This document shows positions 144 to 16,407 of a DNA stretch of 16,466 nt, one piece after another. The notes under the pieces are model-generated. The model saw only the letters and a list, made by a program, of their open reading frames with translations. It was not told where the DNA came from and did no database searches. Position 1 is the first letter of the stretch; each line of letters starts with the position of its first letter. A program made the translations under genes and the position numbers. This DNA is from an archaeon (lineage in GTDB: Archaea > Iainarchaeota > Iainarchaeia > Iainarchaeales > Iainarchaeaceae). Where the stretch lies: positions 1-16,466 of the forward strand of contig JBBSVV010000026.1 in assembly GCA_038046625.1 (NCBI GenBank), written 5' to 3'.

Positions 144-3100
144 TCAGCTGCCGCTTGCACAATTAAGTTCTGATGGTATTGCGGAGCATAACTCAAGGCC
201 GCAGAACAGGCTTTGGCTGGATTTTTCAAAGTCCCCGTAAATCCTGTCCTGGTTCCACCAGAACTCGGTTTTAGTTTCGCCCGTTAAGCCGTCTGTTGAG
301 GCTGAAATGCAGACGTACTTCTGCTTCACAAGTTCAAGTATATCCCCTATGCTTTTGACCTCTCTTAGCCCTGAAAGCCCGTTCAGCTGTACGGTGTCCA
401 AGGCAACTCCCTTTAGGTCGTCGCTGAACAACGAGGATTTTCTCTGCGGGTTGTCGCAGGCAAGGCTGATTGCATAATTGCTTGAGTCGGGAGTATAAAA
501 CATTGTGCCGAGCGATACACTGCCGCTTGGCGCGTTCGGCCAGTAAAAGCCGTACGCGTTTTCAGGATAAGTCAGCCCGCAGAGGCCGGGCGCATTCGCC
601 GCTGAATATTCAGTGTACGCGCGGTCCTTTGTGTCATTGAAAACCCTGTTGCCGGAAAAATCAGCACAGTTCGCGAGGTTGGATGCAATGCCGGTCCATG
701 AGGAAGCGTTCTCCATATCCCCGAGCCTTGGCAACAAGCGATTGCTTGAATTATTCACGTAAATGAAGCCGTTCGCCACGCCCCTATTCGAATCAATTTC
801 AAGCAATACAGGGGTTGGAACGCTCGGCGAATAAGTAAATGTGTAATCTGGCGACCCGTCATTGGAAATTGTCAGGATTTTTCCCCTCTGCGTTGCATTG
901 AGTGCCGTGAAATCCGTTTCCTTTGAGAGGCTGAGGTTGGCAACAGGGGTTCCCGAGCTTCCGGTTATCCTGAGGTCCCCGGAATTTCCCGAACCGTAAA
1001 TCCCTATTGCAGAAAATTCCCCGCTGAATCCGGTTCCATAGCCCTGCCTGTTCACGAAGGTTGGGTTTCCGCCCTGGCCGAAGGTGGCGCCGACATTGGA
1101 GTTGATTGGGAGCCTGTAGAGCAAATCCCCGGAATCAAGCTGGCTCCTGAGCGAGAGCACAACATTAACGTCAAAGTTTGTTTGCCCCTGGGGGAAGAAT
1201 TTCCAGTTGCCCCGGTTTCCGAACCTCAGAGCTATTGTGACGTCATACAGGCCGGGCGCGGGCAATGGGGTAAAGACCGAACCGGTCTTTGAGCTGAAAT
1301 GTATCTTATTGTTCTTGAAAAGGTTGTTGAAGCCATCCGGATCCGTGAATTCTGTGCCTGCATTGAAGAAGCCCGAGTCCATCATTGCGGTGTTGTAGTC
1401 GCTCAAAAAGTCCCGCGAGTAGCCGTCAGGCATCAGGAAAGCCTGGAAGTTCAATAGCTTATCGGAATTCGAGAAGTCATTGTTCCGCTCCACGTCTGTC
1501 TTCAGCCTCTGCAGTTTGTGCATTATTTCGGTTGTGAATTGGGTCGCGTCGCAGTAATGGAAGTCGGCATTAAACCTTGGGGTGGTTGAATTGAAGTCAA
1601 GGAGGTCGCAGGAATCTATCTTGATGTTGCTCCAGTCCCATGAGGCAAGGATTCTTGGCACCGCATCTTCGCCTGTCACGCCTTCAATGTCGTTCGGGCC
1701 GTAGCAAATGTTTTCGCTTCCCGCGTCAATGCGCACGTGGAAATTTTGCTGCAGAACAGGGTAACTCGCCTTCAAAATAAGGAGCACAAAGCGGTTTATG
1801 TTGCTAGTTACCTGGCTTGAACTGTTTTCGTAAGTGTCAACCGCGCCGCCGGTTGATTCCGCAGCCCACTCCATCATTTCAACAGCATCATTCTTGGAAT
1901 TATCCCACGCATAACCGGGTTCGGGACTGTCATTCTGCAGCAGGTCAGTGACGTACGATTCCATTGTAGTCGGGTGCCAGAAGAACAATGAAATGTTGTT
2001 TGCATTGGCCTTTTCAATAAGGTTTTTCACAATGAGCTCTTCCGTTCCCTGCCGCCAGTAACAATCGCCGGCGCTGTACGGGCTGCAGCTGTCCGCATCA
2101 TTGTCCCTTCCGGAAGGCGCATTGTCCCCTATGATGAGGAGAACCCTTCTTGTGTTGCTGCCCAAGTTGCCAAATCTGTCAATCGCATCCTGTGCAGTTG
2201 CACCCCAGGCCTCGCTTAGGGTGTCGGTGCCGCCATTAAAGCCGAATTGCTTGTCGCCCCAAACCAAATCACCGCTTATATTACAATTTGCCCACCATTT
2301 TGATTTGCCGCCATTTTGGCCGTCACCCATTTTGAAAACCTTGGCATTCACGGTAAATCCGTTACTTGAGAGCTGATTCTTGAGCTCGTCTATTCTTGAA
2401 CACACTGTTCTCCACGGGACTTCCATGCTTCCTGAAGTGTCAATCATTATGCCGATGTCAATATGCGTGGCCGCAATGAGATTGAATGCCGTTCTCGCGT
2501 AAACCGTTGCACCCGCATCGTTGGTTCTTGGCGTCGGGCCCCCGTTCCGGTTCTTGAAGTACACGACCACCCAGGTGTCCTCCTCACTGATGACAAATGG
2601 CCCGCTGCCGGTTACTCCAAGTTCCTGAAGGGTTCCGAGAACCTGCTCTTTTCCGTCAGCCGGAATTGTTGCAGAAAGGCTCTTTTCCGTCGAGCCGGAA
2701 AAATGGATCTTGTAATCAAAGGTATAAGTCGGGTTGTTTGGTATGTTTTTTGCGTTAACGTAATCCTCAACATTAATTAACGCGTAATCCCTTCCCTTGA
2801 AACCGGTGTTGACTACGCTGAAGCCGATGTCTCCACCGTTGTCGGAAACGTTTCCGAGGAACCGCCCCTTAATGGTTATGTTGGTGTCCGGAGTGCCTTC
2901 CCACCACAAATCCATCATGCCTTGAGGGTCTCCAACTATATTCAGCTGTATGAAACTTGCCTGGTCCCCTGAAACATTGAAATCAAATGTCCCGAGTTTT
3001 TGCATTGCCTGCCCACTTAGAACGCCAAGGACATAGATTTCATTTTGCGACGGAATGAAAGTAAACAGGTTCGAGTCCAGTTCTATTTGTGCCGAACCCG

Positions 3101-6100
3101 CATTGGTGTCAATGGCATACATCGTCCACCTTACACTTACCGTGCCAAGGTACTGGTCAAAGCGGGGCTGTTTAATTGAGTACCTTCCATTAGCCCCGAG
3201 GTCAAAGGAAACGTTAGGCTCCCAGAAGTCCGGAATAAACACGTGGGCCTTGTTGAATACGTTTCCGTCTTCCTGCCCTGAAAAAATGTTGAACGCGGTT
3301 TTTTGGATGCTGAATAGGTCATTCTGGTCGTCACTGACAATGACCTCAACCATGTTTACGTCCTGGAATTCTGCTCCTGAATCCGCATATCTAGCCTTGA
3401 TGTAAACATCATACTGGCCAACCAGCTTGTCCCCGAGAGCAAGGATGTCTGCGCTTTCCGTAGGCCCCAGCCTAAAAGATGCGCTGTCCTGTGACTGTAC
3501 AATTATTGACTGGCCGCCTTTTTTGAGCGTAATCGGACCTGCATCGGAATTCGAGGAAACGCATGCCGGGCTGTTCGGCGGGGAACATGTTATGGTTTGT
3601 GTTGCCGAGGGAACATAGAGTGCGACCTCAACCGCCTTTTCGCAGCCCGAAGTGCTGATTGAAAATGTTCCGGAAGAGTTATGCGTTGTTTCTATTCTTT
3701 CCGGGGTTATTGTCAGGCAATCGAATTCAGTGGGCGAGAAATCCGCCGTGAACGCGCTTGTGGCACTGAGCTCGACAATCCCCGAGTCATTGTAAAATGC
3801 CTTCTTTGCCCTGACATAAATCTTGTCGCCCGCACTGAACATTGTTTCTATCTGCGCACTATAACTGCCATTTCCGAATTCAATGAACGGGTTTGGCGAA
3901 TCAAAAGAGCTTGTCAGGCTCCATTGCACAATCGCACCCCTAATCGGAAGGCCTGCCGCATTTGTGAGGCCGGCAGTAATAAGGTTAGGTGCCACTCCGG
4001 CATTCAAATGGTTTGGCACAACGGAAATGTTCATGGCATTCTTGTCGGGAATCCTGAAAGTGTAGGTAATATTATCGTCCGGCACATTGAGCCCGAGGCT
4101 TATGCCGAGCTTTGAGGACGAACTTGCCTTTATTGCCTTGAGGTCCGGGTCGATTGTGTAGCTTGTGCCGTTCTGGATGTTCACGGCACTTATGCTTGCA
4201 GGAGTGAGCTCCAAAGAGCCATTATTGTTCGAAAATGTAAGGGTTGCATCGGAAACATCCCTTGACTGCGGCTGCTGGTTGAATATCGAAACATGGATTG
4301 AATAAGGCACATCCTGCCTGAGTTCCTGCGTAACCAAAAGGTCGAGGGTTATGGGTGAGGCAAGGTAAAGCGGCGGGCTCGATTTTTCGCTTAGAGTAAC
4401 GTCAAAGGCAAAGTTGGCGCACTCAACCATTACGGGGTCGCATTCCAGAGGCTTGTTCACGTAGAAACTTTTCAGGTAAAGATTGTTTTGCGACGGCAAA
4501 AACAAGTCCTGTCCCGCGAGCCGTGCCTTTGCGCCGTACCTGACCTGCAGTTCCGCATTGTCAGGCGCATTAGTTGCAACGAAAACCTTTGCAGTGAAAT
4601 TGTAAACCCCGGGGCTTAAAGGGCCGAAGGAAAGCACTGCGAGCTTCGCGTCAACCGAATTCGTTATTTCGGCCTCAATGCCGGCATGATTGTTGCCGGC
4701 GTCATAAGCATTATACCTCACAACAGAGTAGCCGCCTGATTGCGCATCCTCAACCCTTATGAGCGAGTCAACTCCCCTCACTTCGGAGTTTTTGCCCGTG
4801 CGAACAACAGCAACCGCGGAATTCAAATCGCTTTTTACCTTGAGTGTGAACGCGAGAATGTAGTGCGAGCCGGCCTTGAACGAAGTTGCGGCACTTGAAC
4901 CGTCGCCCTTTAACACGCTTACAAGGCCGATGCACATATTGTTGCCGTTGTCGCACTTCAATTGCGGAACGTTGTCGCCCGGCCTGTGCAGAACCACCCT
5001 TGGCGCAAGGGTTTTTTTGGAAATAATCTGATACGAAATTGTCCGCGTAGGCAGATACTCTGCCTTGCTCACCAAAAGGTACGGCTTCCTGTTTTCCTGC
5101 AAATCAACCTTCTTGGTTTTGCCGTTTGTTGCACTGAGCTCTTCCGCAAGCTTTGTGCCGTCAATCTCGTTTATGAACTCAACCTTTGCATCCTGGACCG
5201 GCCTGCCGTCAGTGTCAACTACCTCGACAACCATGGAGCCCTGGCCAAGGACAAGCGTGACCTCAAGAATGAGGTCAGGGCCCTTGGCAAGCGTTCCCTT
5301 CACGGAGCTTCCGCTCGCGCCCGCCTTTTCCGCACCGGCATTATAATCGCCGAACGGCATGTTCTCAAATGCAATCTCCCCGGAACTTGATGTGGTGCCG
5401 CTCTCAACATAGAACCTGAGAGTTGATTGGTAAAGGTAAACCTGCGCGCCGCTCACAGGATTTCCGGCGAAATCCTTGACCCTCACAATGACTTTGCCTG
5501 AATTGTTCGGCGGATCCGCCTTCTCCATCAGGACTGTCGTGGCGTTCGAATCATTCGGATCAACTGTTGGGACGCGCGCAATGAATTTGTGCACGTAACC
5601 CTGCAGCTTTGCGGTAACCGCGTAAGAATTGTTTGCGTCAACGTTCGTGAAAAGCGCGATGCCGTCTGAAAGCGAGGCAATCGTGGAAACAAGCGCATTA
5701 TTCTCGTAGAGCGAAACTCGAACCCCTTCGAGAGGCTGTTTTGTGGATTTGTCAAGGAACTTAAGCAGAACAACTTTTTGCTTCGGGCCGTTCGGGCCAA
5801 CCGCGAGCTTCGAAAGGCTGATGGTAATTTCATTTTCCTTGTCGGCCTCGACATCAACGATTTCGGAATCCAAATTCGCGTACACGGGCAAGGCACTTTG
5901 GTCGCGCGCCTTCACATAATACCTGCCGGGCCCAATGCTGAAAACGGCAACTCCTGAGGAGTCGGATTGCGACTGGTTTTTCCAGATGTTTCCCTCCTCT
6001 GCAAAAAGCAGCAGGTCTATTCCCGGAATCGCTTTTCCTGAAGAAGCCTCCCGGACAAGCACCCTTATGCTTCCTTTTGCCTGGCTCAGCGCACTCATCA

Positions 6101-6800
6101 GGAAAACGGTTCTTGTTCCGCTCAGCGCCTTTTGGTTCGGGTTATAGCCCGTAAGGTTCACGGTTGCCGTGAGGATTCCGCAGTCCGCTCCAACCAAAAT
6201 TCTTTCCTCGCTGCCGGAATTTGTTTTGGTGCTCGGCGCGGGGTAATTCTGGCTGCACGCGAACTGTATCGAGGCACCCGGCAATGGCTTTCCCGCCTGG
6301 TCCCTGACCTCAATGTACTTTTCAAGGAGCGCGGGCTTTGCCGCCTTCAGGACTATTTTTGCTTCTTTGCCTGACTCAATCTGGAGTTCCTGCGCGTAAT
6401 CATCATACCCATTCTTTGAAGCCTTGACCTGCACCTTTAGCTGGTCAATCTTGAGAGAGGCTTCGCCGAATGCGTCGGTTGAAAGCGCATCCTGCTTCTG
6501 GCCATGCATTACAAGGAGCTGTGCCCCCGCAATGGGCTGGTCGGATTCATTGACGACGAGGAATTTTGCCTCGCCCCCAGCGTTAAAGAGCGCGCCGATG
6601 ATGAATGCGCCCAAAAGAAGCACCAGTATCAGTGCCAAGATTCCGATGAAAAGCAGGAAGCTCGGCACAACCTTGTCAATAGGGTCGATTACCTTGTAAA
6701 CCGGAATCTCTTCATTGAGTTTGTCAAGGAAATTGTAATACTTATCCTCAAGCGAGAAATAATACGCCTTGACCTGCCCTATTATGTCATCCAAGCCCAT
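144..6800 (-). CDS. Giant (~2,218 aa) membrane-anchored cell-surface protein, putative adhesin: N-terminal TM anchor, carboxypeptidase-regulatory-like/CnaB-type repeats, vWA domain, Cys-containing C-terminal region
   Basis: Uninterrupted 6.66-kb ORF. Start moved from 6851 to ATG 6800 (MGLDDII...) because the extra 17 codons cross an AT-rich promoter-like stretch. Single hydrophobic segment FLLFIGILALILVLLLGAFIIGALF (~6584-6660); repeated V-x-V-x-D-x-x-G-x-P-x-x-G-A-x-V motifs; IDIGIMIDTSGSM (DxSxS, 2424-2441) and RRVLLIIGD; many N-x-S/T sequons and paired Cys. Confidence 0.9.
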   Translation of the reverse strand: MGLDDIIGQVKAYYFSLEDKYYNFLDKLNEEIPVYKVIDPIDKVVPSFLLFIGILALILVLLLGAFIIGALFNAGGEAKFLVVNESDQPIAGAQLLVMHGQKQDALSTDAFGEASLKIDQLKVQVKASKNGYDDYAQELQIESGKEAKIVLKAAKPALLEKYIEVRDQAGKPLPGASIQFACSQNYPAPSTKTNSGSEERILVGADCGILTATVNLTGYNPNQKALSGTRTVFLMSALSQAKGSIRVLVREASSGKAIPGIDLLLFAEEGNIWKNQSQSDSSGVAVFSIGPGRYYVKARDQSALPVYANLDSEIVDVEADKENEITISLSKLAVGPNGPKQKVVLLKFLDKSTKQPLEGVRVSLYENNALVSTIASLSDGIALFTNVDANNSYAVTAKLQGYVHKFIARVPTVDPNDSNATTVLMEKADPPNNSGKVIVRVKDFAGNPVSGAQVYLYQSTLRFYVESGTTSSSGEIAFENMPFGDYNAGAEKAGASGSSVKGTLAKGPDLILEVTLVLGQGSMVVEVVDTDGRPVQDAKVEFINEIDGTKLAEELSATNGKTKKVDLQENRKPYLLVSKAEYLPTRTISYQIISKKTLAPRVVLHRPGDNVPQLKCDNGNNMCIGLVSVLKGDGSSAATSFKAGSHYILAFTLKVKSDLNSAVAVVRTGKNSEVRGVDSLIRVEDAQSGGYSVVRYNAYDAGNNHAGIEAEITNSVDAKLAVLSFGPLSPGVYNFTAKVFVATNAPDNAELQVRYGAKARLAGQDLFLPSQNNLYLKSFYVNKPLECDPVMVECANFAFDVTLSEKSSPPLYLASPITLDLLVTQELRQDVPYSIHVSIFNQQPQSRDVSDATLTFSNNNGSLELTPASISAVNIQNGTSYTIDPDLKAIKASSSSKLGISLGLNVPDDNITYTFRIPDKNAMNISVVPNHLNAGVAPNLITAGLTNAAGLPIRGAIVQWSLTSSFDSPNPFIEFGNGSYSAQIETMFSAGDKIYVRAKKAFYNDSGIVELSATSAFTADFSPTEFDCLTITPERIETTHNSSGTFSISTSGCEKAVEVALYVPSATQTITCSPPNSPACVSSNSDAGPITLKKGGQSIIVQSQDSASFRLGPTESADILALGDKLVGQYDVYIKARYADSGAEFQDVNMVEVIVSDDQNDLFSIQKTAFNIFSGQEDGNVFNKAHVFIPDFWEPNVSFDLGANGRYSIKQPRFDQYLGTVSVRWTMYAIDTNAGSAQIELDSNLFTFIPSQNEIYVLGVLSGQAMQKLGTFDFNVSGDQASFIQLNIVGDPQGMMDLWWEGTPDTNITIKGRFLGNVSDNGGDIGFSVVNTGFKGRDYALINVEDYVNAKNIPNNPTYTFDYKIHFSGSTEKSLSATIPADGKEQVLGTLQELGVTGSGPFVISEEDTWVVVYFKNRNGGPTPRTNDAGATVYARTAFNLIAATHIDIGIMIDTSGSMEVPWRTVCSRIDELKNQLSSNGFTVNAKVFKMGDGQNGGKSKWWANCNISGDLVWGDKQFGFNGGTDTLSEAWGATAQDAIDRFGNLGSNTRRVLLIIGDNAPSGRDNDADSCSPYSAGDCYWRQGTEELIVKNLIEKANANNISLFFWHPTTMESYVTDLLQNDSPEPGYAWDNSKNDAVEMMEWAAESTGGAVDTYENSSSQVTSNINRFVLLILKASYPVLQQNFHVRIDAGSENICYGPNDIEGVTGEDAVPRILASWDWSNIKIDSCDLLDFNSTTPRFNADFHYCDATQFTTEIMHKLQRLKTDVERNNDFSNSDKLLNFQAFLMPDGYSRDFLSDYNTAMMDSGFFNAGTEFTDPDGFNNLFKNNKIHFSSKTGSVFTPLPAPGLYDVTIALRFGNRGNWKFFPQGQTNFDVNVVLSLRSQLDSGDLLYRLPINSNVGATFGQGGNPTFVNRQGYGTGFSGEFSAIGIYGSGNSGDLRITGSSGTPVANLSLSKETDFTALNATQRGKILTISNDGSPDYTFTYSPSVPTPVLLEIDSNRGVANGFIYVNNSSNRLLPRLGDMENASSWTGIASNLANCADFSGNRVFNDTKDRAYTEYSAANAPGLCGLTYPENAYGFYWPNAPSGSVSLGTMFYTPDSSNYAISLACDNPQRKSSLFSDDLKGVALDTVQLNGLSGLREVKSIGDILELVKQKYVCISASTDGLTGETKTEFWWNQDRIYGDFEKSSQSLFCGLELCSAIPSELNCASGS
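1780..2465 (-). other. von Willebrand factor A (MIDAS) domain within the giant protein (approximate limits)
   Basis: HIDIGIMIDTSGSM (beta1 + DxSxS), then GGTDTLSEAW, RRVLLIIGDNAP (beta4 + Asp), ANANNISLFF and AAESTGG, in the usual vWA order. Confidence 0.8.
4985..6570 (-). repeat. Six tandem degenerate ~80-100 aa beta-sandwich (carboxypeptidase regulatory-like / transthyretin-like) protein repeats; a seventh copy lies near 3760-4030
   Basis: Repeat heads: FLVVNESDQPIAGAQL, IEVRDQAGKPLPGASI, VLVREASSGKAIPGIDL, LKFLDKSTKQPLEGVRV, VRVKDFAGNPVSGAQV, VEVVDTDGRPVQDAKV and AGLTNAAGLPIRGAIV. Several are followed by T/S-D-x-x-G and A-x-K-x-G/E-Y motifs. The repetition is visible at protein level only. 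Confidence 0.8.
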
Positions 6801-6926
6801 TGGAACCAACTTAAAATATGGAAAAAATCTATATATACACAAGTTTCTCATATTTAAACCTGTTTAATCGGGGAAAGCGCTGCGGGCAACGGCAACAAAT
6901 AAATAAGGGAAACCCGAACTTAAAGT
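6801..6926. promoter_or_regulatory. Divergent promoter region (giant protein / GH130) with archaeal TATA-like boxes
   Basis: AT-rich 126-bp gap. TATATATA at 6830-6837 lies ~30 nt upstream of ATG 6800. TTTAAATA on the minus strand at 6851-6858 is the same octamer found upstream of lemA. AAATAAATAA at ~6897-6906 precedes ATG 6927. No clear SD for either gene. Confidence 0.5.
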
Positions 6927-8027
6927 ATGAACATCGAAACAAAAGTGCTTATCACTCCTGAAATGATTACGCCCACGCTGAAAAACTTCCGCGTGCGCGG
7001 CGCAATCAACCCCGGCGGAATAAGGTTGCCGGACAAAAAAATAATGCTTTACGCGAGGATTGCGGAAACCCCTTACCACGACAATAAGAATTACCTTGTC
7101 CCGCGCTTTGTCGGCAAGAACGAGCTCAAGGTAATCATGGACAAGATACCGCGCAGAAGGGGCAAGGTGTGCCCGGACTGCTTCATCATGGACACAGAAA
7201 CGTACCTGCTGTACAGGCTCCCCACGATTTCACATTTCAGGAAAATAATCCTTGATGAGAGCGGCGAGCAAGTCGAGAAAATCAGCCAGTCCCCGGACTT
7301 TTTCGGGCTGATGAATGACGGCGACTTCGGGGTCGAGGATGCGCGCATGACTTTTTTCCGCAGCGAGAACAGGTACGCCATGACCTACGTTTCAGTTTCC
7401 CTGAAATCGGGCGTAACAACTTCGCTTGCAACCTCAACAAACCTCTCGAACTGGAAAAGGGAAGGGGTAATATTCAGGCCACAGAACAAGGACGTGGTTT
7501 TGTTCCCGGAAAAAATCAACGGCTATTACGTTGCATTGAACAGGCCCGAGGGCACAATGATTTTCGACAAGCCCTCAATCTGGCTGTCTTACTCGAAAGA
7601 CCTCCTGTTCTGGGGAAGGGACAGGCCTTTGCTGAGGCCACGGGACAACAGCTGGGAGCATGTAAGGGTCGGCGCCGGAACCGTCCCGATAAAAACCAGT
7701 GAAGGCTGGCTCGAGATTTACCACGGGGTCAGGCTCAAGAACAGGAACAACGCGAACTCGAAAAAAATTTATAGCGCGGGCGCAATGCTCTTCGGCCTAA
7801 AGGACCCGTCAAAAATTCTAGCGAAAACCCCGAAGGACAACCCTTTATTCGAGCCTACCACGAAGGAGGAGAAGCACGGCTTCATGAACAACGTTGTTTT
7901 CCCCACGGCGGCAATCGAGAGCCTCGACAAGAAGAGCCTTTTGGTTTACTGCGGCGCCGCGGACTCAAACACCGTGCTGAAGAAGCTTCGCGTGAGCGAC
8001 ATACTCAACTCGCTCGAATTCACGTGA
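6927..8027 (+). CDS. GH130-family glycoside phosphorylase/hydrolase (five-bladed beta-propeller; beta-mannoside phosphorylase-like), 366 aa
   Basis: Motifs INPGG, YARIAE, TISHFR, GVEDAR, YAMTYVSVS, NKDVVLFPEKING.Y.ALNRP, W...RVGAG..PIKTSEGWLEIYHGV, YSAG, NVVFPTA and YCGAAD match GH130. Confidence 0.9.
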   Translation: MNIETKVLITPEMITPTLKNFRVRGAINPGGIRLPDKKIMLYARIAETPYHDNKNYLVPRFVGKNELKVIMDKIPRRRGKVCPDCFIMDTETYLLYRLPTISHFRKIILDESGEQVEKISQSPDFFGLMNDGDFGVEDARMTFFRSENRYAMTYVSVSLKSGVTTSLATSTNLSNWKREGVIFRPQNKDVVLFPEKINGYYVALNRPEGTMIFDKPSIWLSYSKDLLFWGRDRPLLRPRDNSWEHVRVGAGTVPIKTSEGWLEIYHGVRLKNRNNANSKKIYSAGAMLFGLKDPSKILAKTPKDNPLFEPTTKEEKHGFMNNVVFPTAAIESLDKKSLLVYCGAADSNTVLKKLRVSDILNSLEFT

Positions 8028-8106
8028 CGCAAAAAAATCCGCATCCAAGCGCAATTAAATACATTTCGCACACCAATTATACAAGGCCGCTTCCAAGGTC
8101 TTTTTG

Positions 8107-10287
8107 ATGCAAGGAGAAAAAGTTCTTTTCATTTCGAGTTTTCCGCCGCGTGAATGCGGCATCGCCACCTTCACGAAGGATTTGACGGAGTCCATCCAGA
8201 AAAAATTCGGCAACTCCCTCAAACCAAAGATAGTCGCCATGAACGAAAGCGAATCCAGCTTCCACAAATACCCCGGGAAAGTCGTTTCCTCGATAGTGGA
8301 GCAGGATTTTTCGGATTACGAACGCATCGCGAAAAAAATCAATTCGATGCGCGACGTCAAGGTCGTTAACATACAGCACGAGTTCGGGCTCTTTGGGGGG
8401 GAATATGGCGGGCACTTGCTGAGGCTCATGGAGCTTTCAGATAAAAAAATCGTCACAACCCTTCATACAGTTCTTGAGAACCCGGACCAAAAAATGCTTG
8501 AAACTATCCAGGGAATTTTTGCGAAAAGCGAAAAAGTAATAGTGATGACCGAAATAGCCAAAAAAATCCTTTCTGAACAGTACGGCGTGCCGAAAGAAAA
8601 AATCCGCGTGATTCCACACGGCGTCCCTTCAATCAGCTACGGAAAGGACAAGGAAAAGCTCAAGAGGAAGTTCGGCCTCGAGGGAAAAAATGTTCTGCTC
8701 ACGTTCGGCCTCCTGAGCAGGGGGAAGGCAATCGAGCACGTCATAAATGCGATGCCGGAAATAGTGAGGAAGAATCCGAACGCGCTGTACCTCATTGTTG
8801 GCGAAACCCACCCGAAAGTCAGGGAACAGGAAGGCGAATCATACAGGGCGGAGCTCAAGGAACTCATCAGGAAAAACATGGTTGAGGACAACGTGAAGTT
8901 CATGGACAAATTTGTTACGACACAAGAACTCGTTGAATGCCTCACGATTTCCGACCTTTACCTTGCGCCTTCACTCGACCCAAAACAGATTTGCAGCGGC
9001 ACAGTCAGCTATGCATTGGGCGCGGGAAAGGCAATTGTGGCGTCAAAAAACAAGTACAACGAGGAAATGCTTTCAAACGGGCGCGGAATAATGCTGCCCG
9101 CCAATTCGCCAAAGGGATTTGCCGATGCGGCGAACAGGCTCCTAAATGACGAAGCGCTCCTCAAAGGCTATGAAAAGAATGCGTTCGAATTCAGCAGGAA
9201 AATGACCTGGCCAAACGTTTCCGCACATTACACCGACGTTTTTTATTCCATTTCGGAAAATGGCGGCGGGTTTTTCGGGAGGCTTCCAAAAGTCAGCTTC
9301 AGGCACTTTTCAAGGCTTACCGATGACTTTGGCATAATACAGTTTGCCGATTACTCAACCCCCGACAAACAGAGCGGCTACACTCTTGACGACAATGCAC
9401 GGGCCCTTACTGTCGCGGTCAAGGGATATGAAAAGTTCGGGACGCAGAAAATGCTGCGCTTTGCCGACAAATTCCTCGGCTTCATTGACTACTGCAAAAC
9501 CGAGAACGGGAAATTCCACAACGAACTTAATTATGAAAGGGAATTCATGGATGATTTCGGCAGCGAAGACAGCTTTGGCAGGGCAATAAGGGCACTTGGC
9601 TCGACATGGAACAGCTCTTTGCCGGACAAATACAGGTTCAGGGCAAGGGAAATACTGGAAAGCACAATGAAAAACGGGCAGGAAATAAATTCCCCAAGGG
9701 CACAGGCAAACACACTGATCGGGCTCGCGAATTCAAGCGCACTTTCCGCGAACGACGGCACAATCAGGGCCGGGCTTGTTGACTCGCTGGTTTCGAAATT
9801 CCACGAAAACAGCGATGACGAGTGGCAGTGGTTCGAAAAATACCTGACCTACGGCAACAGCGTCATTCCGGAATCATTGTTCGAGGCAGCGCCGCAGAAC
9901 GGCCTTGAAACTGCAATGGAAGTGGCGAAAAAATCCCTCAACTTCCTCACGAAAACGCTTTTCATAAACAACAAGTTCGTTCCAATCGGGCAGGAAGCAT
10001 GGTATCTCAAGGGCGAAGAAAGGTCGGTTTACGACCAGCAGCCCATTGAAGCCGGAACAACTACAACGGCTTACCTAAAGGCATTCGAAAAAACCGGGGA
10101 CGAAAGCTACAGGAAAAAGGCGCGCGAGGCTTTCGACTGGTTCCTCGGTCAGAATTCAGCAAACCAGGTTGTTTATGACGAGGCAACTGGCGGCTGCTTC
10201 GACGGCATAACGAGGACAGGCGTAAACGCGAACGAGGGCGCGGAATCAACCATCTCCTATCTGCTTGCAAGGCTCTCGATAAGCTAG
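8107..10287 (+). CDS. Two-domain protein: GT4 (GT-B) mannosyltransferase-like glycosyltransferase fused to a C-terminal (alpha/alpha)-toroid, glycosidase-like domain, 726 aa
   Basis: N-terminal half: SSFPPRECGIATFT, IQHEFGLFGG, TTLHTV, IPHGVP, TFGLLSRGKAIE, GETHP, QICSGTVSYALGAGKAIVAS. C-terminal half (from ~9285): GIIQFA, GYTLDDNARAL, SEDSFGRA, WFEKYLTYGN, DQQPIEA, WFLGQN, GGCFDG, NEGAEST. ATG 8107 preferred over TTG 8104. Confidence 0.88.
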   Translation: MQGEKVLFISSFPPRECGIATFTKDLTESIQKKFGNSLKPKIVAMNESESSFHKYPGKVVSSIVEQDFSDYERIAKKINSMRDVKVVNIQHEFGLFGGEYGGHLLRLMELSDKKIVTTLHTVLENPDQKMLETIQGIFAKSEKVIVMTEIAKKILSEQYGVPKEKIRVIPHGVPSISYGKDKEKLKRKFGLEGKNVLLTFGLLSRGKAIEHVINAMPEIVRKNPNALYLIVGETHPKVREQEGESYRAELKELIRKNMVEDNVKFMDKFVTTQELVECLTISDLYLAPSLDPKQICSGTVSYALGAGKAIVASKNKYNEEMLSNGRGIMLPANSPKGFADAANRLLNDEALLKGYEKNAFEFSRKMTWPNVSAHYTDVFYSISENGGGFFGRLPKVSFRHFSRLTDDFGIIQFADYSTPDKQSGYTLDDNARALTVAVKGYEKFGTQKMLRFADKFLGFIDYCKTENGKFHNELNYEREFMDDFGSEDSFGRAIRALGSTWNSSLPDKYRFRAREILESTMKNGQEINSPRAQANTLIGLANSSALSANDGTIRAGLVDSLVSKFHENSDDEWQWFEKYLTYGNSVIPESLFEAAPQNGLETAMEVAKKSLNFLTKTLFINNKFVPIGQEAWYLKGEERSVYDQQPIEAGTTTTAYLKAFEKTGDESYRKKAREAFDWFLGQNSANQVVYDEATGGCFDGITRTGVNANEGAESTISYLLARLSIS

Positions 10288-10315: not shown

Positions 10316-11950
10316 TCATAGAAGGTTTCTTCCTGCGGCAGAATCAACTAAAATTTTTGCGTTCCCATGGCGCTGCAGCACGGATGCAGGCGCGCCTTCA
10401 TCTGGCCTGCGTGAAAATGACTTTGAAATGGCGCGCGCCTTTGCCCTTCCGCTTGCAACCAATATTATTTTTCTGGCGGACATAATCGTTGAGATGCCCA
10501 GAGTAATGGCCTTCGCGGGTTCCGCCCCCGCAAAATCCGCCTTTCTCGCGCGCAAAACCCCCTTCGAAATTTTCACTACCCGCGTCTTTGAATTGAACGC
10601 AGTTCCGGGTTCATTGAAAGCGATGTGAGCATTAGCCCCTATGCCTAACAGAGCCAAATCCAAACCCCTTGCTTTAACGACAGCCGCGATGCGCCCACAT
10701 TCGGCACCCAAATTTTTTGCGTTGCCATTGAACAGGAACACGTTTTGCGGCCTGAAATTCACTTTGCCCAAAAAATTCTTTTTCAGGGAGAATGCAAAAG
10801 AATCGCGCTCATCCGTAGTTCCGGCATACTCGTCCAATTCAACAAAAGCCGCTTTCGAAAAATCCGCTTCACGTTTTTTATAAGCAAGGGCAAGCGCCCT
10901 GTAAACCGCAAGCGGGGTTTTTCCCGCGGCAAGTGAAATCACCGACTCGGGCTTTTTGCGCAGCTGCCTCACAACCATCGCCGCGGCCGCCTTCGCCGAT
11001 TCCCCGTAATTCCGCACTTTTATTATTTCGGCAAGGTTCCGCCCAAGCAAATAATTCTTAAGCATTTTTCCGGTCGGGGCAAAGTAAGTTTTTTCCGCGA
11101 TTTTCCTGCCGGCAACAAAGTTCCCGCAAATAAGGCGGTTCCTGCTCCCAAAGCCATTGACCGCACCGTAAGCATAACCCGCATTAAAAAAATCCCCCGC
11201 GCCGGTTGCATTAAAGGGTTTTACCGGAAGCGCCGCCGAACTGTGCTTCGCGCCTTTGCAGTAAAATTCCGCGCCCCTGTTCCCGCGCTTCAGGACAACG
11301 CGATTGGCACCCATTTTGAACAGTTTTTTGATTCCGAATTCTTGGCTGCGCGATTTTGTTATGTGCCTCAATTCCAGCTCATTGAGGAAAAAAGCGTCAA
11401 CGTGCCGGATGAAATCACTTACCAGCCATTTACCGTACTCGTCAAAGCACGCATCGAAAAAAACAAGCGCCTTTTTTTTGCGAATCGATTTAAGCAGTGC
11501 GGAAAAGCTATTCCTCATCTTCGGAAGGTGAAAGAACCCGCCAAAGAAAACAATGTCGTCTTCGGAAAGGCGCGGCAAAAGGAACCTTGCCACGGCCTTC
11601 GAATCAAGTTCCAGCAGGCACCCCTTGCTGGATAGTATTGCCCGTTCGCCGTCATTGCGCACAAAAATATTCGAAACGCCATTCGGAGACGAAGTTTTTT
11701 TCAGCAGGGGCTTTACCCGGAAACGTTTGAGTTCACTCAAAAGGAAAGTTGTGAAAACATCTTTGCCGAGAGCACTTACAATTGTTGTGTCGAGGCCGAG
11801 TGAAGAGGACGCGACGGCAAAGTTTGCGGCATTTCCGCCGAGCGAGTAGTAAAATTTCTCCGCGTGCCTCTCCTCGCCGAAATTTGCACCGCCGCCGGAA
11901 TGTGTGAATAAGTCAATATTCAGGTCTCCGACTGAGAAAATTTTCGGCAT
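10316..11950 (-). CDS. nagB: Fusion of a PfkB/ribokinase-family carbohydrate kinase (N-terminal, ~11060-11950) and a NagB-type glucosamine-6-phosphate deaminase (C-terminal, ~10316-11035), 544 aa
   Basis: PfkB part: VGDLNID, GGNAANFAVASSSLG, LGKD, NELE, KRGNRGA, NATGAGDFFNAG (11192-11212). NagB part: LAAGKTP, LDEY, LLGIGANAHIAFNEPG (HIAFNEP at 10607-10627), AITLGISTI, ASG..KA, PASVLQRH. No stop or frameshift between the halves. Start set at ATG 11950 (MPKIFSVG). The symbol applies to the C-terminal domain only. Confidence 0.9.
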   Translation of the reverse strand: MPKIFSVGDLNIDLFTHSGGGANFGEERHAEKFYYSLGGNAANFAVASSSLGLDTTIVSALGKDVFTTFLLSELKRFRVKPLLKKTSSPNGVSNIFVRNDGERAILSSKGCLLELDSKAVARFLLPRLSEDDIVFFGGFFHLPKMRNSFSALLKSIRKKKALVFFDACFDEYGKWLVSDFIRHVDAFFLNELELRHITKSRSQEFGIKKLFKMGANRVVLKRGNRGAEFYCKGAKHSSAALPVKPFNATGAGDFFNAGYAYGAVNGFGSRNRLICGNFVAGRKIAEKTYFAPTGKMLKNYLLGRNLAEIIKVRNYGESAKAAAAMVVRQLRKKPESVISLAAGKTPLAVYRALALAYKKREADFSKAAFVELDEYAGTTDERDSFAFSLKKNFLGKVNFRPQNVFLFNGNAKNLGAECGRIAAVVKARGLDLALLGIGANAHIAFNEPGTAFNSKTRVVKISKGVLRARKADFAGAEPAKAITLGISTIMSARKIILVASGRAKARAISKSFSRRPDEGAPASVLQRHGNAKILVDSAAGRNLL

Positions 11951-12030
11951 AGTGATTACGGGTGCCCCGTGAGGCACCGAGATTATTGGGCAAACATCAT
12001 ATTTATGCTTATCTCACAAAGAATTTGTGC
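11951..12030. promoter_or_regulatory. 80-bp divergent promoter region with a central TATA-like element and two inverted repeats
   Basis: ATATTTAT at 11999-12006 (ATAAATAT on the minus strand); GGTGCC-N6-GGCACC at 11961-11978; CACAAA-N3-TTTGTG at 12015-12029. Confidence 0.5.
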
Positions 12031-12612
12031 ATGAAGAAGGCACTTGTCGTGGTCGCGCACCCCGATGACGAGACAATCTGGATGGGCGGAAAGATTCTGC
12101 GCGAAAAAAGCTGGAACTGGACAGTTGTTTCCCTGTGCCGCAAGGATGATGCGGACAGGAAGCCGAAGTTCTTCCGCGTGTGCTCGCAATTGAATGCACG
12201 CGCCTTCATCTCGGACCTCGAGGATAAACATCCTGAGGAGAAGCTGCCTTCACTGGATGAGGTCGTGAAGCGCCTCGAGCCAATTGCAATGGACAAGAGC
12301 TTTGATGTTGTTTATACGCACGGCACGAACGGCGAGTACGGGCACAATAGGCACATAGAGGTCAATGCGGCGGTGAAGCGCATGGTTCAGGACGGCCTGA
12401 TTGACTGCAAAGAAGTGTTCGAGTTCGATTATCTGCGCAAGGAAAATCCGTTCAGGTGCGAGCCGAACCAGGAAGCGCGGATAAAATTCGCGCTGAGCGC
12501 GCGCGAACTGGAAAAGAAAAGGTATTTAATCAGCGAAGTGTATGGTTTTGATAAGCAAGTCTTCGAATACATCAGCTGCAGCGGCACTGAAACATTCAAG
12601 AAAGTGAAATAA
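12031..12612 (+). CDS. PIG-L / LmbE-family Zn-dependent N-acetylhexosamine de-N-acetylase, 193 aa
   Basis: MKKALVVVAHPDDETIWMGG (AHPDDE signature straight after beta1, which supports the start at ATG 12031), conserved Arg in DADRKPKF, and VYTHGTNGEYGHNRH (second His motif). Confidence 0.88.
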   Translation: MKKALVVVAHPDDETIWMGGKILREKSWNWTVVSLCRKDDADRKPKFFRVCSQLNARAFISDLEDKHPEEKLPSLDEVVKRLEPIAMDKSFDVVYTHGTNGEYGHNRHIEVNAAVKRMVQDGLIDCKEVFEFDYLRKENPFRCEPNQEARIKFALSARELEKKRYLISEVYGFDKQVFEYISCSGTETFKKVK

Positions 12613-14951: not shown

Positions 14952-15836
14952 TCACATTCCGCGCAGCCTTTTCACGCGGTCCCCAATTTTAGGGTGCGTG
15001 TCAAACATGCCGTCAAACCATGCTTTGCGGTTCTTCAAAGGATTGTCGATGTACAAATGTGCGGTTGCGCTGTTTGCGGCCTCGAGCACTTCCTTATCCG
15101 AACCGATTTTTTCAAGTGCGCTCGCCAGGCCTTCAGGATTCCTTGTTAACATTACGCCGGAAGCATCCGCAAGGTATTCCCTTTGGCGGGAAATCGCGAA
15201 CTTCAGGAGCATTGCAACAATAGGAGTTATTATTGCAAGCACTATTCCCACAACAAGGAGTATCAGCCCGCCCCTTCCCCTATTACCACCATGCTTGCCC
15301 CAGAGGATGCTCCTCAGGATAATGTCGCTCAAAAGCGCTGTAAGGCCCACAAAAACAACAACAAGCATCATGAGCCTGATGTCATAGTTCTTTATGTGGC
15401 TCATCTCGTGCGCAATTACCCCCTCGAGCTCCTGCCTGTCAAGCCTCTGAAGCAGGCCTGAAGTGACAACAATGATGCTGTGCCCGGGGTTTCTTCCCGT
15501 TGCAAACGCGTTCAATGCCGTGTCATTGATTACATACGCCTTTGGAGCAGGGATTCCCGCCGCAATAGCGAGGCCCTCAATGAGGCTGTAGAGATAAATG
15601 TTATCCTTCCTTTGCAGTTCCTTTGCGCCGCTAATCGCGAGAACAATCCTGTCCGCAAAGTAATAACTGAACGTGACATAAATCAAAAGAAAAATCAGGC
15701 CGATTATTATGCCAATGGTTCCGCCTCCGCCGAACCATATTTCGCCGAGAACCCAGGAAAGAAAAAGAATGAAAACGGAGAAAAACGCAACGAGAATTAT
15801 TGTGTTGCGATTATTCTCCGAAATCTGCTCGTACAT
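14952..15836 (-). CDS. htpX: HtpX-like M48 family membrane zinc metalloprotease, 294 aa
   Basis: Two N-terminal TM helices, NAFATGRNP, ELEGVIAHEMSHIKNYD (HExxH), two further TM helices, SRQREYLADA, THP...RV. Confidence 0.95.
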   Translation of the reverse strand: MYEQISENNRNTIILVAFFSVFILFLSWVLGEIWFGGGGTIGIIIGLIFLLIYVTFSYYFADRIVLAISGAKELQRKDNIYLYSLIEGLAIAAGIPAPKAYVINDTALNAFATGRNPGHSIIVVTSGLLQRLDRQELEGVIAHEMSHIKNYDIRLMMLVVVFVGLTALLSDIILRSILWGKHGGNRGRGGLILLVVGIVLAIITPIVAMLLKFAISRQREYLADASGVMLTRNPEGLASALEKIGSDKEVLEAANSATAHLYIDNPLKNRKAWFDGMFDTHPKIGDRVKRLRGM

Positions 15837-15846
15837 CCGGTTTCAC

Positions 15847-16407
15847 TCAGAAGCTTACCTTGACGTTGCTTCTCGCGGCTTCCTCTATCTCGAAGTATTC
15901 CTTCTTCCTGAAGCCGAAAATTCCCGCTATTATGCTGTCAGGCATAACCTCGGCCTTGGTGTTGTACTGCAAAACCGTGTCATTGTAGAACTGCCGCGTA
16001 TACGCAATCTTCGATTCTATCGAGGAAAGCTCCTCCTGAAGCATGAGGAAATTCTGGTTCGCCTTGAGTTCAGGGTATGCCTCCGCAACCGCAAACAGGC
16101 TCTTCAATGCGCCCGAAAGCAGGTTTGAAGCCAGCGAAGTTTCCTTCACGCCCTTGGCATTGGCCATCTGGGCCCTTGCCTCGGTAACCATCTTGAAGGT
16201 TTCCTTCTCGTGCTTCGCATAGCCCTTCACAGTTTCAATGAGATTCGGCACCAAATCAAAACGCCTCTTCAATTGAACGTCAATCTGGCTCCACGCATTC
16301 TCGAACCTGTTCCTCAGCACGACAAAACTATTGTATGCGAGCAGGAACCACAATGCAAGAACGGCAACCGCTACAATTACAATTCCTAAAATAATCTCCA
16401 AAGCCAT
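15847..16407 (-). CDS. lemA: LemA family protein, 186 aa
   Basis: N-terminal [61 protein letters not shown]...E.KIAY.RQFYN. Lies 10 bp upstream of htpX, the known lemA-htpX pairing. Confidence 0.97.

Follow-up and report, generated by a model that had tools for sequence, protein, structure and literature searches.

In Thermococcus kodakarensis the glucosamine (GlcN) kinase is an ADP-dependent glucokinase, and GlmD, the glucosamine-6-phosphate (GlcN-6-P) deaminase, has a SIS fold. The order of steps in this organism is deacetylation, hydrolysis, phosphorylation of GlcN and deamination to fructose-6-phosphate (Fru-6-P) (PMC6579819). Here we analyzed a contig of 16,466 nucleotides (JBBSVV010000026.1, or C26; "the window" denotes this whole stretch) from GCA_038046625.1, a 986-kb assembly in 57 contigs that is 84.6% complete and belongs to a small groundwater archaeon of the DPANN phylum Iainarchaeota/Diapherotrites. 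On its reverse strand lies a gene whose product joins a PfkB-type kinase to a NagB-type deaminase. The reading that we favor, to which we assign a probability of roughly one half, is that this fusion is a GlcN 6-kinase/deaminase, which would salvage GlcN from an alpha-glucosaminide to Fru-6-P.

The order of steps proposed here would equal that of the T. kodakarensis chitin route (Dac, GlmA, GlcN kinase, GlmD), where the deacetylase is also of the PIG-L family, and a PIG-L-family deacetylase beside the pathway genes, which is a Thermococcus-type feature, occurs in the cluster of the window as well. In contrast, the kinase is here of the PfkB type, the deaminase has the NagB fold and the two are fused, the hydrolase is GH100-like, a GT4 glycosyltransferase (the candidate synthase) lies in the cluster, no match to an ADP-dependent phosphofructokinase (PFK) or glucokinase (PF04587) was obtained in the genome, and GH18 chitinases were found in 0 of the 23 genomes of the family. 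Because this genome and those of its family are incomplete, "not found" does not here equal "shown to be absent", a point that counts against the reading we favor. With E. coli NagK/NagA/NagB the fusion would share the NagB end reaction, and both would require an amino-sugar kinase in the cytoplasm, but no NagA was found (best match 18 bits in the genome; 0/23 family genomes over the cut-off), nor a ROK kinase in the genome, nor a BadF-type kinase or a glucokinase in any of the 23 family genomes; the kinase fold differs, and a PIG-L protein stands where NagA would be. FrlD/FrlB and FraD/FraB combine a PfkB 6-kinase that acts on an amino-sugar derivative with a deglycase that uses Amadori-type chemistry. 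There, however, the second enzyme has a SIS fold and is a separate protein, and the substrates are fructosamines; the FrlD model matched the kinase half of the fusion weakly (40 bits).

The PfkB-NagB fusion gene and its distribution

The open frame of the fusion (10316..11977) opens at a GTG, and the ATG at 11950 is its likely start because homologues share the pattern M..(K/R)(I/V)F.VGD there (Table 1). An earlier note, made from the sequence alone, had reported a single frame with intact PfkB and NagB motifs; its coordinates proved exact, and all the motifs it named are present in the translation, which holds SLGGNAANF, NELE (NxxE), TGAGD, ELDEYAG and NAHIAFNEPG. Across 48 aligned fusion proteins (alignment A1), residues G38, G39, N43, E193, A251, G252 and D253 of the kinase half and D373, Y375, H442, N446, E447 and P448 of the NagB half are invariant, as are G343, T345 and K504 (the GxTP motif and the Lys of the NagB half), and the kinase motifs G38-G39, N190..E193 and G250-A251-G252-D253 are invariant or almost so across the aligned homologues. 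In PfkB kinases these motifs are the GG switch, NxxE and the GAGD that forms the anion hole and carries the catalytic Asp; in E. coli and Bacillus subtilis NagB the Asp of DEY, the His and the Glu are catalytic, and GxTP and the Lys bind phosphate. AlphaFold2, run on A1, returned a single compact two-domain chain (mean pLDDT 94.0, pTM 0.91), which suggests that the two modelled domains have a defined mutual packing, and the linker comprises in this model the end of a kinase helix, a helix at residues 294-302 and the first NagB strand. A Foldseek search gave no PDB chain for the two domains together, the query TM reaching 0.49 at most.

The closest PDB sequence to the NagB half is the monomeric NagB of B. 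subtilis (2bkv, E 1e-46), followed in order by those of S. mutans, Borrelia, human and E. coli. The fold match to 2bkv_B (Foldseek) has a TM of 0.93 and a root-mean-square deviation of 1.6 over 238 columns at 37% identity, in agreement with the earlier claim of a complete NagB fold. The non-allosteric B. subtilis enzyme (2bkv/2bkx) thus aligns end to end with the C-terminal domain, and the motif residues of the fusion align with the same motifs in 2bkv; the two proteins have in common LDEY, (N)xHI(A/G)FNEPG and an Asn before the catalytic His, where the E. coli enzyme has an Asp. Unlike in B. subtilis, NagB is here the C-terminal half behind a kinase, and it scores under the curated NagB cut-offs (see below). 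A role of this half as a lactonase only, which the earlier note had named as a refuting case, was weakened: the 6-phosphogluconolactonase model TIGR01198 gave 67.6 bits against a cut-off of 124.45, and the genome encodes, between gnd and zwf, one other PF01182 protein, which at 158 bits exceeds the cut-off of 124 and is a true pgl; a transaldolase/FSA-like gene adjoins this set. Since a true pgl occupies this zwf-pgl-gnd operon, we rejected lactonase activity as the main role of the NagB half.

The junction at 11035-11060 is bridged, with neither indel nor joint, by contigs from three other runs, X4 (10316-11478), X5 (10316-12142) and X6 (10433-12347), and the runs that match the fusion region come from two studies. 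These contigs, together with the recurrence of the fusion in homologue clusters and genomes, rule out an assembly artefact at the junction. Position 11957 reads C instead of T in the contigs of X4, X5 and X6, and not in X1, which is strain variation near the start codon of the fusion. Among 67 homologue clusters (90% identity), 51 held both domains, 11 PfkB alone, one a truncated PfkB only, and four PIG-L plus NagB. The intact full-length fusion was detected in 31 of the 215 genomes of the phylum (own family, 16/23; f12, 12/23; f25, 2/2; f29, 1/2), with partial fusions in two further genomes, one interrupted (G102) and one cut by a contig end (G083). As only five full and three partial matches spanned both domains among 1.84 billion representatives (50% identity), the fusion is recurrent yet restricted to a small clade. 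When genome contigs were scanned with a profile of the fusion alignment, no fusion loci were obtained: 79 of the 80 loci kept had the NagB half only, and the remaining one (L008) is a standalone kinase. When a tree was built from 142 NagB domains, the 49 that are fused to PfkB all grouped in one clade (SH-aLRT 95), consistent with a single fusion event as judged from these sequences; their nearest neighbors were NagB-PIG-L fusions of the same phylum, with weak support (69).

A set of 27 long proteins picked from the 150 best matches to A1 was scanned against Pfam. Two are PfkB-NagB proteins of the same clade as that of the window, seven are NagB-PIG-L and five NagB-ROK, two of the latter scoring above the NagB equivalog cut-off and carrying a ROK glucokinase-family domain. 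One protein each had the architecture NagB-PIG-L-phosphohexomutase (NagB-PIG-L-PGM; P0146, 942 aa), NagB-PGM, PP2C, PGM and NagB in a giant chain of 2866 aa, NagB-GHMP (GalK-like), ketohexokinase (Khk)-like PfkB-NagB (P0121, 617 aa), GLUCM-like_C-NagB (D-glutamate-cyclase-like, 544 aa) and AraC regulator-NagB (526 aa), and six had an unannotated extension. Unusual NagB architectures among the representatives were P0146, P0095, P0160 and P0180. In addition, locus L156, from a genome for which no PfkB orthologue was found, has a gene for a ROK kinase and a long NagB gene that overlap. NagB is thus repeatedly joined to kinases that are predicted to act on free sugars. The NagB-ROK, NagB-PIG-L (NCBIfam PRK02122 type) and Khk-NagB proteins likewise hold NagB and a sugar kinase or PIG-L in one chain, but they differ in kinase fold or in domain order, and none is the PfkB(N)-NagB(C) of this clade. 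A full-text literature search, with supplements and subscription journals outside its reach, gave no description of a PfkB-NagB fusion, no report of a PfkB glucosamine kinase and nothing on the amino-sugar metabolism of Diapherotrites/Iainarchaeota, and no characterisation of LmbE plus NagB fusions was found. The architecture is therefore apparently undescribed, as the earlier note had supposed.

The conserved cluster and a candidate GlcN salvage route

Besides the genome of the window, 30 genomes carry an intact fusion, and the neighborhoods of 20 fusion loci from these relatives were compared with that of the window. The PIG-L gene, the 385-aa GT4 gene and the GH100-like gene flank the fusion in 20/20 loci in an unchanged arrangement, the hydrolase of L131 being present only as a fragment before the contig end, and the GH130 and 727-aa GT4 genes were present in 13/20, L131 carrying a further partial copy of the latter. 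The halves of the fusion also occur apart. A standalone kinase, 38-42% identical, accompanies PIG-L, GT4 and the hydrolase in seven genomes (L140-L145 and L164), and in the five of these that were checked a separate locus encodes NagB, joined to PIG-L as NagB(N)-PIG-L(C). Conversely, in three genomes (L160-L162) a standalone NagB takes the place of the fusion, between the 727-aa GT4, which is found there too, and PIG-L, while the kinase gene lies at another place in the genome. This conserved PIG-L/GT4/GH100-like neighborhood is the main clue to function.

Table 1. Positions of the fusion gene, its domains and the other features of the window
Feature	Position	Strand	Basis
PfkB-NagB fusion gene, 544 aa	10316..11950, stop included	-	frame, Pfam, 31/215 intact orthologues, AlphaFold2
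PfkB (ribokinase-like) kinase domain, residues 1-281	11108..11950	-	PF00294, 125.4 bits (cut-off 25.8), E 3.7e-36; same coordinates in whole-genome search
Linker, residues 282-318	10997..11107	-	gap between Pfam envelopes; pLDDT above 90
NagB-type glucosamine-6-phosphate deaminase domain, residues 319-529	10364..10996	-	PF01182 (Glucosamine_iso), 79 bits (cut-off 27), E 4.6e-22; NCBIfam; 2bkv
Divergent intergenic region, 80 bp, between fusion and PIG-L; presumed promoters	11951..12030	.	sequence
PIG-L/LmbE-family N-deacetylase	12031..12612	+	PF02585; AHPDDE and HNRH motifs
GT4 retaining glycosyltransferase, 385 aa	12614..13771	+	Pfam; start abuts PIG-L stop
Compact (alpha/alpha)6 glycoside hydrolase, GH100-like, 380 aa	13754..14896	-	Pfam GH100/GDE_C/MGH1-like; converges on GT4
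GT4 glycosyltransferase, 727 aa; extended cluster	8104..10287	+	Pfam
GH130 beta-mannoside phosphorylase-like gene; extended cluster	6927..8027	+	PF04041; NCBIfam 237 bits (cut-off 550)
Giant 2235-aa protein	144..6851	-	repeated CarboxypepD_reg, Ig-like and macroglobulin-like domains
M48 peptidase and LemA genes, tandem pair	14952..16407	-	

The PIG-L gene, which diverges from the fusion, is the only one of its family in the genome; its frame opens with a GTG at 11962 and the likely start is an ATG at 12031. The protein gave a weak match to the NCBIfam model of MshB and no match at E <= 0.01 in a PDB sequence search. With tblastn it had no match above 45 bits to the PIG-L domains fused to NagB, so that it belongs to another subfamily. 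The 385-aa GT4 scored 75 bits with GlgA-Coryne, 70 with MshA and 62 with BshA in NCBIfam, all under the cut-offs, and 24 with the sucrose-phosphate-synthase model; its best match in the PDB was 6kih, presumably a cyanobacterial sucrose-phosphate synthase, followed by MshA and BshA structures. For the GH100-like protein no signal peptide was predicted. The PDB sequence matches of this protein (AlphaFold2 pLDDT 89) were GH100 invertases, and the Foldseek neighbors of its model were GH100 InvA and InvB and a plant neutral invertase (query TM 0.73-0.76), followed by GH78, the GH63 hydrolases of mannosylglycerate (MgH) and glucosylglycerate (GgH), and a debranching enzyme. Most fold neighbors of this model hydrolyze small cytoplasmic glycosides (sucrose, mannosylglycerate, glucosylglycerate).

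The data show a two-domain architecture with its catalytic motifs intact, together with the folds, the conservation and the gene neighborhoods; from these we infer a scheme for the substrate of the kinase, the direction of the NagB reaction, the acceptor X and the activity of each product, neighbors included. In the synthesis arm, on the forward strand, the 385-aa GT4 would move N-acetylglucosamine (GlcNAc) from UDP-GlcNAc onto an acceptor X, and PIG-L would deacetylate the product to GlcN-alpha-X, following the logic of MshA/MshB and BshA/BshB. In the turnover arm, on the reverse strand, the GH100-like hydrolase would free GlcN from GlcN-alpha-X, the PfkB domain would phosphorylate it at O-6 with ATP, and the NagB domain would convert GlcN-6-P to Fru-6-P and ammonia by deamination and isomerisation; Fru-6-P could then feed the oxidative pentose-phosphate operon. 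With MshA/MshB and BshA/BshB the cluster has in common the pair of GT4 and PIG-L families and the order of action, but the scores are far under the cut-offs, no cysteine ligase lies in the cluster, and a hydrolase and a kinase-deaminase are found instead. In a cluster that holds a deacetylase, a hydrolase and a GlcN-6-P deaminase, only the kinase step is missing. A hydrolase with no predicted signal peptide and with the fold of small-glycoside hydrolases, together with the lack of GH18 matches in the family, makes an internal glycoside a likelier substrate than chitin.

The kinase half is probably a hexosamine (GlcN or GlcNAc) 6-kinase, which is favored by the PIG-L gene of the cluster, by the halves that stay in the cluster when they are split, and by the independent NagB-ROK fusions. 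A hexosamine kinase feeding NagB had been predicted in the earlier note from the fusion; the genome context favors it, but the sequence and fold of the kinase half show only a generic ribokinase-like PfkB. While right on the architecture, that note missed the PIG-L/GT4/GH100-like cluster, and it held neither the GlcNAc reading nor that of a Fru-6-P 1-kinase, which are weighed below.

Other observations on the region are as follows. In the 727-aa GT4, the glycosyltransferase domain spans residues ~72-361, and ~365 C-terminal residues have no Pfam match. The giant 2235-aa protein looks like a surface or adhesion protein, a kind that is common in DPANN archaea, and several relatives have divergent homologues of it in the corresponding flank of the cluster. 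A contig assigned to Candidatus Falkowbacteria, of the candidate phyla radiation (L008, ~4775-8900), carries a GH100-like/GT4/PIG-L/standalone-kinase cluster and a fragment resembling the giant protein, which reflects lateral transfer or else a contig that was mis-binned or mislabelled.

Candidate substrates of the kinase half

The best single-sequence PDB match of the kinase half was the ribokinase of T. maritima (E 7e-13). A profile of 18 orthologues (A2) had as top PDB matches YdjH, ribokinases, MJ0406, a fructokinase, ketohexokinases and sulfofructose kinase, and the fold is that of ribokinase, with Foldseek matches to ribokinases and to the sulfofructose kinase YihV at a TM (target) of 0.84-0.87. 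By these comparisons the kinase half is a generic ribokinase-like PfkB whose sugar is not readable from sequence or fold. The genome has two further PfkB paralogues, one of which is probably a nucleoside kinase because it adjoins adenosylhomocysteinase and adenylate kinase genes.

Several observations weigh against the assignment of the fusion to GlcN. No diagnostic hexosamine feature is apparent in the kinase sequence, and to our knowledge no PfkB-family glucosamine kinase has been described. Every specific kinase model scored far under its cut-off: 91 bits for ribokinase (TIGR02152, cut-off 299.65), 49 for fructokinase (NF006957, 450), 60 for tagatose kinase (NF049991, 420), 32.5 for 1-PFK/hexose kinase (TIGR03168, 216.4), and 78 for IolC. 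The top NCBIfam models for the NagB half were also under their curated cut-offs (NF001684, 202.2 bits against 326; TIGR00502, 174.1 against 236.9), and AgaI, the galactosamine-6-phosphate isomerase (NF007291), gave 137.7 bits against 271, so galactosamine-6-phosphate may be the substrate of this half. A detached kinase orthologue in genome G151 stands beside GT2, HAD and GH15-like genes, with no PIG-L. The Khk-like PfkB-NagB and the NagB-PIG-L(-PGM) fusions fit routes through phosphorylated GlcNAc equally well. Finally, the cluster resembles a sucrose cycle (a GT4 synthase, a GH100 invertase and a PfkB fructokinase), and by that analogy the kinase half would be a fructokinase.

The phosphorylated-GlcNAc route would run from a PfkB that makes GlcNAc-6-P, through a PIG-L that deacetylates it in the stead of NagA, to a NagB that forms Fru-6-P. 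No family genome has a nagA over the cut-off, and the NagB-PIG-L fusions and the NagB-PIG-L-PGM protein place PIG-L among sugar-phosphate enzymes, both of which agree with this route. We nevertheless regard it as unlikely, since the fused kinase and NagB would not then catalyze consecutive steps, the PIG-L of the window is of another subfamily than the NagB-fused ones, and, judging from gene order, it is co-transcribed with the GT4, as is the case for MshB and BshB, which act on glycosides. We know of no PIG-L member that acts on GlcNAc-6-P.

The sucrose-like alternative has the kinase half as a fructokinase, with NagB running towards GlcN-6-P (a GlmS bypass that would supply UDP-GlcNAc to the GT4) or with both halves converging on Fru-6-P, in an amino-sugar sucrose cycle. 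PfkB fructokinases accompany GT4/GH100-type genes in known sucrose clusters. The three families of that cycle (sucrose-phosphate synthase of GT4, alkaline/neutral invertase of GH100, PfkB fructokinase) co-occur in this cluster too, the best solved match of the GT4 is 6kih, both the sequence and the fold of the hydrolase match GH100 invertases, and a PfkB-NagB fusion resembling prokaryotic ketohexokinase exists (P0121). However, PIG-L and NagB are here integral to the cluster and PIG-L would have no role in a fructose route, the sucrose-phosphate-synthase model fares worse on the GT4 than those of MshA and BshA, no sucrose-phosphate phosphatase lies in the window, the fructokinase model is far under its cut-off, and NagB would still need a source of GlcN or GlcN-6-P. 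Furthermore, a full glmS is present (640 bits, cut-off 418; the search otherwise gave just an amidotransferase-domain match), and GlmU is encoded by two separate genes (C27:4355-4879 and C49:6095-6796), the acetyltransferase half lying near glmS and the nucleotidyltransferase half elsewhere. UDP-GlcNAc can therefore form without NagB, which weakens the GlmS bypass that the earlier note had offered as its second option, and we consider the fructokinase alternative quite unlikely. Half-length GlmU matches recur across the 23 family genomes, and none reaches the full-length cut-off.

Alternatively, the kinase could act on the aglycone X or make a phosphorylated acceptor for the GT4 (e.g., myo-inositol, another polyol or an acid), with NagB as a pathway neighbor. 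PfkB myo-inositol kinases exist in Thermococcales, and the weak MshA-like matches of the GT4 and MshB-like matches of PIG-L would suit such an acceptor. The G151 locus (L147, contig C45, 3031-6906), in which the kinase orthologue stands with GT2, an S6PP-like HAD phosphatase and a GH15-like gene, resembles a glycoside-phosphate synthase/phosphatase set, and it may be a second set for glycoside synthesis and turnover. With such a kinase, however, GlcN freed by the hydrolase would have no kinase, and the fusion to NagB, kept in 31 genomes and forming a single NagB clade, would be left unexplained. We give this alternative little credence.

Finally, the kinase could follow NagB instead of preceding it, as a PFK (of the Aeropyrum-like PfkB type) that takes GlcN-6-P via Fru-6-P to fructose-1,6-bisphosphate, or as the equivalent for tagatose-6-phosphate after an AgaI-like deaminase. 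These steps would be consecutive, the PfkB-NagB and NagB-PIG-L fusions would join neighboring steps, and searches of the genome gave neither a PfkA-type PFK nor one of the ADP type. A tandem pair of PfkB genes in G214, a genome from a different family of the phylum (L148, contig C19, 5785-7864), lies a few kb from genes for PGK, GAPDH, a HAD hydrolase and TIM, and one member of the pair shares 35-37% identity with the kinase half. This pair possibly represents PfkB-type glycolytic kinases, a setting in keeping with a PFK. Against this, no DeoC-family (class I archaeal) or class II fructose-bisphosphate aldolase was found in the genome, just 7 of the 31 genomes that carry an intact fusion gave a DeoC-family match above 100 bits, the models for phosphosugar kinases (1-PFK/hexose kinase) reached only 32-33 bits, the kinase keeps to the GT4/PIG-L/GH cluster even when NagB is elsewhere, the kinase partners of NagB in other proteins are ROK sugar kinases and not PFKs, and the source of GlcN-6-P would remain missing. 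A PFK is on these grounds very improbable.

If the GlcN 6-kinase/deaminase reading is correct, the chemistry would be of a known pathway type, assembled from different parts and fused. A more far-reaching version, which we hold only tentatively and consider doubtful, is that the cluster encodes a full make-and-break cycle for a new cytoplasmic alpha-D-glucosaminide and that the fusion is the first PfkB glucosamine kinase, channelling GlcN-6-P between its halves. As a free-amine analogue, such a glucosaminide might resemble sucrose, glucosylglycerate or the GlcN-inositol/GlcN-malate thiol precursors, and it could serve Iainarchaeota as a solute, a store or a cofactor precursor. The carbon metabolism of DPANN archaea is known nearly only from annotation, and a compact, confidently modelled protein of 544 aa makes a one-polypeptide conversion of GlcN to Fru-6-P directly testable. 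If the GlcN 6-kinase/deaminase reading holds, glucosamine would join the substrates of the PfkB kinase family, a third, non-homologous form of archaeal amino-sugar catabolism would be added, in which PfkB and NagB replace the ADP-dependent glucokinase and the SIS-fold GlmD, and the finding would point to a glucosamine glycoside made by tiny uncultured DPANN archaea.

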